Part shown: in pieces, positions 2,845 to 4,476 of the stretch
Layout of the letters: every line of letters starts with the position of its first letter
Position numbering within the stretch: the stretch's first letter is position 1
IMG/VR virus record: IMGVR_UViG_2627853967_000001
From: a virus
Taxonomy: Duplodnaviria; Heunggongvirae; Uroviricota; Caudoviricetes
Strand: one strand, 5' to 3'
Length of the DNA stretch: 4,476 nt
The notes under the pieces: generated by a model
Seen by the model: only the letters and a program-made list of their open reading frames with translations
Databases searched by the model: none
What the model was told of the DNA's origin: nothing
Made by a program: the position numbers and the translations under genes

Positions 2845-2849
2845 GCAGC
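2845..2849. repeat. IS2 target-site duplication, GCAGC (copy at IRR side)
   Basis: The 5 bp immediately outside the IS2 terminus at 2850 are gcagc, identical to the 5 bp at 4181..4185 outside the other terminus. IS2 makes 5-bp duplications. Confidence 0.8.
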
Positions 2850-2890
2850 TGGATTTGCCCCTATATTTCCAGACATCTGTTATCACTTAA
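2850..2890 (-). repeat. IS2 right inverted repeat (IRR), terminus ...CA
   Basis: The 41 bp at the element end share GCCCC, TCCAGACA and TATCACTTA blocks with the left repeat. Confidence 0.7.
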
Positions 2891-3766
2891 CCCATTACAA
2901 GCCCGCTGCCGCAGATATTCCCGTGGCGAGCGATAACCCAGCGCACTATGCGGATGCCATTCGTTATAATGCTCGAACGCCTCTGCAAGGTTCTTTGCTG
3001 CCGTTAACCCGTCTGGTTTGGGCATGATACTGATGTAGTCACGCTTTATCGTTTTCACGAAGCTCTCTGCTATTCCGTTACTCTCCGGACTCCGCACCGC
3101 CGTGTTCTTCGGTTCAAGTCCCAACATCCGGGCGAACTGGCGTGTTTCATTAGCCCGGTAGCATGAACCATTATCCGTCAGCCACTCCACTGGAGACGAC
3201 GGAAGATCGTTGCCGAAGCGGCGTTCCACCGCTCCCAGCATGACGTCCTGTACTGTTTCACTGTTGAAGCCGCCGGTAGTCACCGCCCAGTGCAGTGCCT
3301 CACGATCACAGCAGTCCAGCGCGAACGTGACACGCAGTCTCTCTCCGTTATCACAGCAGAACTCGAACCCGTCAGAGCACCATCGCTGATTGCTTTCTTT
3401 CACGGCCACTCTGCCTGTATGTGCCCGTTTCGATGGCGGTACAGCAGGTTTTCGCTCAAGCAACAGCGCATTCTGGCGCATGAGCCGGTAAACACGTTTG
3501 GCATTGATCGCAGGCATACCATCAAGTTCTGCCTGTCTGCGAAGCAGCGCCCATACCCGACGATAACCATACGTGGGCAGCTCTCCGATAACATGGTGTA
3601 TACGGAGAAGCACATCCGTATCATCAGTGTGACGACTGCGGCGGCCATCCATCCAGTCATCGGTTCGTCTGAGAATGACGTGCAACTGCGCACGCGACAC
3701 CCGGAGACAACGGCTGACTAAGCTTACTCCCCATCCCCGGGCAATAAGGGCGCGTGCGCTATCCAC
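2861..3766 (-). CDS. insD: IS2 transposase OrfB (InsD), 301-aa frame; normally expressed as an InsCD fusion by -1 frameshifting
   Basis: The translation [23 protein letters not shown]...[29 protein letters not shown] matches IS2 InsD along its full length. It overlaps the insC 3' end in the -1 frame. Confidence 0.9.
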
Positions 3767-4134
3767 TTTTTTGCCCGTCCATATTCAACGGCTTCTTTGA
3801 GGAGTTCATTTTCCATCGTTTTCTTGCCGAGCAGGCGCTGGAGTTCTTTAATCTGCTTCATGGCGGCAGCAAGTTCAGAGGCAGGAACAACCTGTTCTCC
3901 GGCGGCCACAGCAGTAAGACTTCCTTCCTGGTATTGCTTACGCCAGAGAAATAACTGGCTGGCTGCTACACCATGTTGCCGGGCAACGAGGGAGACCGTC
4001 ATCCCCGGTTCAAAGCTCTGCTGAACAATTGCGATCTTTTCCTGTGTGGTACGCCGTCTGCGTTTCTCCGGCCCTAAGACATCAATAATCTGTTCTCCAA
4101 TGACAAGTCTAAAAACTGGTATTAAGACTATCAC
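3724..4134 (-). CDS. insC: IS2 OrfA (InsC) regulatory/DNA-binding protein; conserved 121-aa region is 3724..4089; the canonical start codon position reads ATT
   Basis: The translation ...[53 protein letters not shown]...LLPGDGE matches IS2 InsC. The codon where InsC normally begins (4089..4087) is ATT, not ATG, though it is still preceded by GGAGAACAG. The only in-frame NTG upstream is GTG at 4134, inside the left inverted repeat and with no Shine-Dalgarno. Confidence 0.8.
3766..3772 (-). other. Programmed -1 ribosomal frameshift heptamer A-AAA-AAG (insC to insD)
   Basis: Minus-strand sequence GCA AAA AAG TGG in the insC frame; a shift to -1 reads AAA AAA GTG GAT AGC, the start of the InsD frame. 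It sits exactly at the insC/insD overlap. Confidence 0.6.
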
Positions 4135-4138
4135 TTAA

Positions 4139-4180
4139 ATAAGTGATACTGGTTGTCTGGAGATTCAGGGGGCCAGTCTA
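4139..4180 (-). repeat. IS2 left inverted repeat (IRL), terminus TA; contains the palindrome TATCACTTA-TT-TAAGTGATA
   Basis: Revcomp of 4139..4180 is TAGACTGGCCCCCTGAATCTCCAGACAACCAGTATCACTTAT. Confidence 0.7.
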
Positions 4181-4185
4181 GCAGC
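4181..4185. repeat. IS2 target-site duplication, GCAGC (copy at IRL side)
   Basis: Identical to 2845..2849. Confidence 0.8.
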
Positions 4186-4364
4186 TGCTCTACGGTCATA
4201 TTTTTAATTGCGCTCCGGTTTACAAGAGCCCACCCCTGTTTTTCCAGATAAAACTGGAAAGTATCCAGGGTACAGACCAGTGCACCGTCAGGAACAGTTT
4301 CGGTGAATCTGATATTGCCGTGTTCGTCGAAGTGCACAACCAGAGTGCGACCGTTACCCGGAAT
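4181..4364 (-). pseudogene. Internal fragment (61 codons) of an unidentified prophage gene, cut by IS2 on both sides; its last 4 codons and stop lie at 2831..2849
   Basis: Open minus-strand frame across the whole 184-bp segment: IPGNGRTLVVHFDEHGNIRFTETVPDGALVCTLDTFQFYLEKQGWALVNRSAIKNMTVEQL. Removing IS2 and one copy of the duplication joins it in frame to ...LSIK-TAA (stop at 2831..2833), 47 bp upstream of kilR. The ORF-track entry 4131..4337 is this fragment read through into the IS2 left repeat. Confidence 0.45.
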
Positions 4365-4476
4365 TAGACTGGCCCCCTGAATCTCCAGACAACCAGTATC
4401 ACTTATTTAAGTGATAGTCTTAATACCAGTTTTTAGACTTGTCATTGGAGAACAGATTATTGATGTCTTAGGGCCG
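4365..4476 (+). mobile_element. IS2, second copy, left end only (continues beyond window), + orientation
   Basis: 4365..4476 is identical to the reverse complement of 4069..4180 (IS2 left repeat and insC leader), starting TAGACTGGCCCCC. Confidence 0.9.
4411..4476 (+). CDS. insC: IS2 OrfA (InsC) of the second copy, 5' part only; canonical start position 4456..4458 reads ATT
   Basis: GGAGAACAG ATT ATT GAT GTC TTA GGG CCG encodes (I)IDVLGP. The in-frame GTG at 4411 is the only upstream NTG. Confidence 0.45.
   Translation, partial: MIVLIPVFRLVIGEQIIDVLGP

Follow-up and report, generated by a model that had tools for sequence, protein, structure and literature searches.

A 4,476-nucleotide (nt) stretch of virus record IMGVR_UViG_2627853967_000001 (here called the window) carries two copies of the insertion sequence (IS) IS2 (IS3 family, IS2 group); the genome resembles that of Shigella flexneri, and the region is a decayed prophage of the Rac type. 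Whole-window searches of plasmid and Escherichia coli collections recognized the Rac prophage, IS600, and IS2; no record in these collections spanned 80% of the window. Both IS2 copies, one complete (copy 1) and one running past the window end (copy 2), read ATT at the position where insC (orfA) of the reference element starts with ATG. Here, we report the anatomy of the two copies, the distribution of the ATT allele among sequenced genomes, and the readings of its effect on IS2 that these data may support.

Anatomy of the two IS2 copies and their start codon

Copy 1 could be aligned end to end with IS2A (insC1/insD1) of E. coli K-12 with 10 differences in 1,331 nt (99.25% identity), six of them within the first 94 nt (IS2 nt 32, 42, 43, 63, 76, and 94) and the others at nt 274, 606, 697, and 900. 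The two elements have in common their length of 1,331 bp, the 42- and 41-bp terminal repeats, the weak extended −10 promoter, the Shine-Dalgarno sequence GGAG, the overlap of the two frames at the A6G window, and a 5-bp target-site duplication. The window copy differs in the change of AUG to AUU (nt 94), in A to T at nt 76 and T to C at nt 63, in an inverted loop (nt 42 and 43), and in the other scattered substitutions. The left inverted repeat (IRL) departs from K-12 at nt 32 and 42, and nt 43 lies just inside the element. Pfam hits to HTH_Tnp_1, HTH_21, rve, and rve_3 were found on identical products. With the expected size, inverted repeats, two overlapping frames, A6G window, 5-bp duplication, and left-end extended −10 with its adjacent OrfA operator all present, the element is, on structural grounds, unambiguously IS2 in everything except the canonical AUG, and a nucleotide identity of 99.25% keeps it within IS2 despite that exception. 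Coordinates are collected in Table 1.

Both copies read GGAGAACAG-ATT-ATT-GAT-GTC, with the start-position ATT at 4089..4087 (minus strand) in copy 1 and at 4456..4458 (plus strand) in copy 2. This codon is preceded by GGAG at a 5-nt spacing and followed by ATT GAT GTC TTA GGG; the 120 codons downstream are identical to those of InsC, as would be needed of an AUU start. A preliminary description of the stretch had reported the ATT in both copies and an intact Shine-Dalgarno sequence, and had given ATG and the protein start MIDVLG as canonical. These points were confirmed when the window was set against K-12 IS2A (NC_000913.3, annotated insC1 at 381351), which has the same GGAG, reads GGAGAACAG ATG ATT GAT GTC, and encodes an InsC beginning MIDVLGPEK; the change from the reference is a single G to T at IS2 nt 94. 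Because this is one derived substitution on an otherwise 99.25% identical element, chance resemblance is irrelevant to the ATT.

Reading upstream in frame, the codons before the start position are TAA GTG ATA GTC TTA ATA CCA GTT TTT AGA CTT GTC ATT GGA GAA CAG. Among these codons, GTG (4134..4132) is the only NTG; it directly follows a stop codon and has no purine-rich tract before it, in agreement with the preliminary description, which had called it the only such codon and one lacking a Shine-Dalgarno sequence.

Lewis and colleagues locate P_IRL, a weak extended −10 promoter, just inside the left end of IS2, TGAT (bp 48 to 51) forming its first four bases, and the OrfA repressor docks at 5'TAAATAA3' within bp 39 to 48 (PMC3299598). 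A stronger promoter arises only at the minicircle junction (PMC3299598, PMC3219604). The −10 hexamer would accordingly occupy nt 51 to 56, and transcription should start near nt 62 to 64. A simple sigma-70 scan found no canonical −35/−10 promoter in the left end, a blank result that fits a weak extended −10 promoter. The preliminary description had taken InsC to repress the promoter in the left repeat and the insC frame to feed the transposase; published work bears out both points for OrfA (InsC) and P_IRL (PMC3299598).

The left-end palindrome, which is perfect, has a 4-nt loop (nt 41 to 44; window positions 4137 to 4140 and 4405 to 4408) that reads ATTT here versus AAAT in K-12 and overlaps the docking site TAAATAA. 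The inverted 4-nt loop also occurs in many E. coli IS2 copies. Among 105 left ends, both loop orientations were present on both nt-32 backgrounds (failure of the four-gamete test over 10 nt), which suggests recurrent inversion of the palindrome loop.

Table 1. Features of the window, beginning with the two IS2 copies
Feature	IS2 nt	Window position	Strand	Remarks
IS2 copy 1, complete, 1,331 bp		2850..4180	minus	Near 3' end of pRha-family gene of Rac prophage; aligned end to end with K-12 IS2A
IRL	1-42	4139..4180	minus	Includes loop (nt 41-44, ATTT orientation) of palindrome TCACTT-ATTT-AAGTGA, within OrfA docking region
Upstream in-frame GTG	47-49	4132..4134	minus	Overlaps TG of extended −10; annotated start of 136-amino-acid product
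Extended −10 promoter P_IRL, TGATAGTCT	48-56	4125..4133	minus	Same as reference; position from PMC3299598
T to C, derived leader change	63	4118	minus	Seen solely in Rac-prophage copies that also have T76 and ATT
A to T, derived leader change	76	4105	minus	Seen only on ATT copies
Shine-Dalgarno GGAG	83-86	4095..4098	minus	5 nt before start position
ATT at insC/orfA start position	92-94	4087..4089	minus	Reference ATG
orfA (insC) frame, 121 codons plus stop		3724..4089	minus	Equals K-12 InsC except codon 1; Pfam HTH_Tnp_1
A6G (AAAAAAG) programmed −1 frameshift window		3766..3772	minus	Intact; role from PMC3219604
orfB (insD) frame, 301 codons		2861..3766	minus	Intact; one conservative difference from K-12 (I95L); Pfam HTH_21, rve, rve_3
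Right inverted repeat (IRR), 41 bp		2850..2890	minus	Equals K-12
Target-site duplication GCAGC, 5 bp, left-end side of copy 1		4181..4185		Read from sequence; flanks match
Target-site duplication GCAGC, 5 bp, right-end side of copy 1		2845..2849		Read from sequence; flanks match
IS2 copy 2, first 112 nt		4365..4476	plus	Runs past window end; same C63/T76/ATT haplotype
Copy 2, nt 63	63	4427	plus	
Copy 2, nt 76	76	4440	plus	
Copy 2, Shine-Dalgarno		4447-4450	plus	
Copy 2, ATT		4456-4458	plus	
Rest of 184-bp pRha-family stretch (4181-4364, includes GCAGC)		4186..4364	minus	Between facing IS2 left ends; colinear sequence in L005/L006
IS600, 3' part		1 to ~514		
RecE (Exonuc_VIII) fragment, 474 codons		519-1943	minus	
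racC, ydaE, kilR homologues		After RecE fragment		

Distribution and haplotypes of the ATT allele

The ATT allele was sought in E. coli genomes and plasmids with a 64-nt query (IS2 nt 77 to 140) that avoids the other variable sites. In 5,426 complete E. coli genomes, this query found IS2 at 12,934 places, none of them an exact full-length match (best match 98.4%, one mismatch); in the plasmid collection, it matched exactly in 27 plasmids, all from S. flexneri. Species-representative genomes were scanned with an exact 29-mer for the ATT pattern only, which matched solely S. flexneri SFBU1023 (3 loci) and “E. coli” ECMA0423 (2 loci). The latter (L006 and L007; CP178302.1), although labelled E. 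coli, has IS2 sites and ATT haplotypes in common with SFBU1023 and is probably a Shigella flexneri-type genome. The preliminary description had asked whether the reference IS2 might itself read ATT; beside K-12 IS2A, ATG was present in 101 of the 105 left ends in the fetched viral and prophage loci, the other 4 having ATT. The pINV plasmids carry mostly IS2 fragments, with few left ends.

In the fetched contigs, ATT copies occupied at least 14 distinct insertion sites, including two in Shigella dysenteriae Sd197, and a perfect 5-bp duplication flanked nearly all complete ATT copies examined (at least 8 besides copy 1). The allele was found in Sanger-era as well as long-read assemblies (S. flexneri 301, 2457T, and 8401, pCP301, S. 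dysenteriae Sd197, and others), which excludes sequencing error. Within the collections searched, the ATT allele is genuine, derived, and confined to Shigella; restricted as it is to that genus, its presence at no fewer than 14 sites shows that it has not run into a dead end. Hawkey et al. (PMC7373316) noted an expansion of IS2 in every Shigella species, as well as a distinct IS2 subpopulation that Shigella shares and for which pINV was the probable vehicle. Searches of the open-access literature turned up no previous report of an ATT start in IS2 of Shigella.

The two ATT copies of Sd197 (CP000034.1; L027 and L028) occupy separate sites, yet each is interrupted by IS1 at IS2 nt 1191 and each has the AAAT loop; they differ at nt 76 (A versus T). 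The pair suggests a duplicated IS2-IS1 composite or a rearrangement.

Three ATT haplotypes were distinguished at nt 63, 76, and 94: T-A-ATT (pCP301), T-T-ATT (several chromosomal sites and many pINV plasmids), and C-T-ATT (the window and other Rac copies). The nearest ATG copies, those of pWR501 and of Shigella chromosome CP026765.1, are T-A-ATG, and neither T76 nor C63 was ever seen together with ATG among the copies examined. The window copy departs from that of pWR501 at four positions, three of which fall inside 32 nt of the leader (simulation P of ~0.006 in a post hoc test). The changes at nt 76 and 63 (window 4105 and 4118) each break one of two ACTAGT (SpeI) palindromes, and nt 63 sits at about the inferred P_IRL transcription start. 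An RNA-structure role for the two positions, which oppose each other in a possible 5-bp ACTAG/CTAGT stem, was considered and rejected: such a stem would extend to both sides of the inferred transcription start, and pairing is not restored by either change.

The same insertion, identified by its flank and duplication, carried different alleles in different strains (loci compared: L008, L009, and L010 for pINV; L021, L023, and L039; L041 versus L006, L012, and L044; L105 versus L011 and L013). The pINV site and the PATR-autotransporter site each held ATG, T-A-ATT, or T-T-ATT; the Rac pRha site held T-T-ATT or C-T-ATT, and the Rac ydaU site held T-A-ATG or C-T-ATT. IS2 position 899 also differed between L011 and L013 at their shared site. 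Different alleles at orthologous insertions imply that alleles move between resident copies by gene conversion, and the pattern points to frequent gene conversion (concerted evolution) among Shigella IS2 copies. A count of ATT sites as independent transpositions was dropped, since orthologous sites carry different alleles.

Copies 1 and 2 are identical across the 112 nt that they share. Identical or near-identical IS2 copies occupy the pRha site of copy 1 in L006, L012, and L044. All 8 related loci lack an insertion at the site of copy 2, which marks copy 2 as a strain-specific insertion. It has the rare C63/T76/ATT haplotype of copy 1, 184 bp away, so that the shared source which the preliminary description had proposed for the two copies is confirmed. 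No other single observation speaks as strongly as copy 2 for recent movement of an ATT element. The transposase could have come from copy 1 or from an ATG copy.

Translation and mobility of the ATT copies

The preliminary description had named both an attenuated or silenced variant and an unusual AUU initiation as readings. We favor the reading, to which we give a probability of about one-half, that the ATT copies are hypomorphs initiating at AUU, i.e., attenuated rather than dead IS2 elements whose protein output is probably cut to a trickle rather than off. Both copies would belong to a sub-lineage of IS2 restricted to Shigella, in which the G-to-T change at nt 94 turned the start codon common to OrfA (the InsC repressor) and OrfAB (the InsCD transposase) from AUG to AUU. 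Ribosomes would still bind the unchanged GGAG at its 5-nt spacing, the initiator tRNA would read AUU inefficiently, and synthesis of unaltered proteins (fMet-Ile-Asp...) would continue at a few per cent of its usual rate. In E. coli reporters, AUU yields 1 to 2% of the AUG level, and infC and pcnB use it naturally (bioRxiv 10.1101/063800). Because OrfA represses P_IRL, a lower amount of it should partly de-repress the weak left-end promoter and raise transcription in part. The ends would still be good substrates, so that the ATT allele could persist as a minority among ATG copies and spread by transposition, with its own or a borrowed transposase, and by gene conversion between resident copies. 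In support of this reading, everything else in the ATT element is intact: Shine-Dalgarno sequence, extended −10, A6G window, IRL and IRR, and InsD.

The predicted structure of the leader may soften the loss of initiation. Folding of nt 65 to 110 gave a hairpin (nt 65 to 104; window 4077 to 4116) whose loop holds the Shine-Dalgarno sequence and in whose stem the AUG pairs with CAU (nt 79 to 81). The canonical hairpin was predicted at −11.1 kcal/mol (z of −2.3); with G94U, the C79-G94 pair is broken, and the prediction falls to −6.3 kcal/mol (z of −0.1), to which T76 adds nothing. By removing this pair from a hairpin that would bury the start codon, G94U may open the start region, offsetting part of the initiation loss. 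In longer transcripts, IRL nt 18 to 23 (TCTCCA) are predicted to pair with the Shine-Dalgarno region TGGAGA (nt 82 to 87).

Several observations weigh against AUU-started hypomorphs. The hairpin effect varies with the length of RNA folded, and covariation support for the hairpin is lacking. Initiation at AUU is itself a prediction, and IS2 OrfA is not among the proteins reported in the S. flexneri proteogenomic paper checked. ATT is a minority allele, with 3 left ends in SFBU1023 and 2 in ECMA0423, and S. flexneri 301 has 29 chromosomal IS2 copies against a population median of 28 (Hawkey et al. 2020, S1 Table). ATT and ATG copies occur together in one genome and even in one contig: a single prophage contig carries C-T-ATT at the pRha site and T-A-ATG at the nearby ydaU site, and a second genome also has both alleles. 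A borrowed transposase can thus explain ATT mobility. The differing alleles at orthologous insertions further indicate that part of the ATT spread is gene conversion rather than transposition. Taken with the minority status and the coexistence with ATG, this exchange means that the spread does not prove autonomous transposition driven by AUU. The allele has been kept at 14 or more sites in two Shigella species, yet it is derived, in the minority, and exchanged with ATG at orthologous sites, and the roughly one dozen substitutions on ATT copies are too few for a purifying-selection test of the dN/dS type.

These same observations feed the main rival to the AUU hypomorph, which we regard as possible but on balance unlikely. 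It holds that the ATT copies are null for their own proteins: full-length, non-autonomous passengers mobilized by the transposase of ATG copies, repressed by the OrfA of those copies, and spread or erased by gene conversion. The 3 and 2 ATT copies in two genomes, set against ~28 IS2 copies per S. flexneri genome, the sharing of genome and contig with ATG copies, the strain-to-strain variation of alleles at the four shared sites (pINV, PATR autotransporter, Rac pRha, and Rac ydaU), and an AUU efficiency of just 1 to 2% are all as expected of such passengers. IS3-family transposases act preferentially in cis, a preference that should handicap a null copy. The allele nonetheless reached at least 14 sites in two Shigella species and acquired two further leader changes confined to ATT copies, and the newest insertion repeats the rare haplotype of the adjacent ATT element. 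An AUU behind a good Shine-Dalgarno sequence is, moreover, never strictly zero.

It is quite doubtful that the allele marks something more coordinated, namely, a Shigella IS2 lineage in which an AUU start and a melted leader hairpin would give low synthesis dependent on IF3 and physiology, and which would spread by gene conversion and transposition with follow-up changes at nt 76 and 63, as a regulatory variant evolving in concert.

We consider it improbable that the allele is favored, either because lower IS2 output benefits an IS-laden Shigella or because AUU ties transposase to IF3 and physiology, with T76 and C63 fine-tuning the leader. IF3 discriminates against AUU starts, as in infC, and the derived changes are nested and clustered in the leader (ATT, then T76, then C63; P of ~0.006) in an allele found in two Shigella species. 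The clustering test was post hoc, however, T76 adds nothing in the fold beyond G94U, and the allele is still a minority within genomes. The expression effects that selection would act on are predicted ones, and with weak purifying selection in Shigella, drift would suffice.

Translation from the upstream in-frame GTG (4134..4132), which would add a 15-residue N-terminal extension to OrfA and OrfAB and make a 136-amino-acid OrfA, is very improbable. Besides being the only upstream in-frame NTG, this codon is the start chosen by the pCP301 annotators and by PGAP, and it would be present on RNAs that start at the minicircle junction promoter or outside IS2. The 136-amino-acid product (...GEQIIDVLG...) stands in public databases as two sequences, an L6 version in 57 contigs and a P6 version, that of the window haplotype, in 33, with accessions from S. 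flexneri 301, 2457T, and 8401 and pCP301. GenBank and RefSeq start ATT copies at the GTG (window 3724 to 4134, minus strand; also L008 and L009), and the fused transposases carry the same extension. The GTG has no Shine-Dalgarno sequence, however, and sits in the stem of the TCACTT/AAGTGA palindrome. It also overlaps the TG of the extended −10 (nt 48 to 51), upstream of the native transcription start (PMC3299598), and should hence be absent from native mRNA, which makes the 136-codon frame an unlikely source of product. The extension is, in addition, ordinary leader in ATG copies and differs between ATT haplotypes (L6 versus P6). The 136-amino-acid OrfA entries are probably an annotation artefact.

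A downstream start at Met30 (GGGG abutting ATG) was set aside, as it is poorly spaced and would cost OrfA part of its N-terminal DNA-binding region (PMC3219604). The chance that the ATT is a sequencing or assembly artefact is practically nil, with the same base in both window copies and in dozens of other assemblies, produced independently and by more than one sequencing technology.

Related systems and surroundings of the copies

The ATT form of IS2 adds a start-codon variant to a familiar element and does not represent a novel type of system. An AUU start has a precedent in the family: as cited in PMC3299598, OrfB of IS911, an IS3-family element of enterobacteria including Shigella, starts at AUU (Polard et al. 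1991, J Mol Biol 222:465), and on the strength of that citation, such starts appear usable in the transposase region of these elements. The AUU of IS911, as cited there, is the wild-type internal start of the minor product OrfB, whereas in the window the putative AUU replaces the primary AUG of OrfA and OrfAB and is a derived minority allele. The two confirmed AUU-initiated E. coli genes, infC (encoding IF3) and pcnB, have their AUU behind a functional Shine-Dalgarno sequence, as does the window IS2, and by analogy, the ATT element may work like them. Sensitivity to IF3 discrimination would likewise be expected. The AUU of infC and pcnB is conserved, and its part in regulation has been demonstrated; that of the window IS2 is a putative start codon and a recent mobile-element polymorphism. 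Defective IS copies mobilized in trans, such as those resembling miniature inverted-repeat transposable elements, offer a further parallel, since they too have intact ends, a possible source of transposase in sister copies, and autonomous copies beside them. Unlike such derivatives, the ATT IS2 is full length with both frames and the frameshift site intact, its sole lesion being a leaky start codon.

Five insertion sequences, IS2 among them, shaped the genomes of Shigella by expanding there. A weak promoter, repression by OrfA, and infrequent frameshifting are the presumed controls of IS2. The natural allelic series ATG, ATT, ATT with T76, and ATT with T76 and C63 could show how far translation initiation limits transposition. 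The variant also allows the dependence of IS3-family elements on their own cis-made transposase to be tested and shows how alleles travel between resident copies. For databases, the consequence is that annotation pipelines silently extend ATT genes to an implausible GTG, giving rise to the 136-amino-acid “OrfA” entries.

The two IS2 copies of the window are inverted, with their left ends face to face, 184 bp apart, inside the pRha-family Rac gene. Inverted repeats of kilobase length that lie so close together should be prone to recombination. The far end of copy 2 lies beyond the window, and a rearrangement may have taken place there.

Left tips of some other IS2 copies were irregular. In the 3650 region of L003, the tip reads ATCCC-TA-TAGACTGG..., with ATCCC on the other side and thus two extra bases, and at the left junctions of L004 and L007, the duplication GTATA fits only with an element starting at GACTGG. 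These tips may reflect the imprecise joining of the IS2 left end described in the literature.

At the other end of the window, recE has been shortened to 474 codons by the IS600 insertion, the open reading frame ending 5 bases short of IS600. This end of IS600 has itself been hit by an IS2 insertion on pINV (duplication TGTCC).

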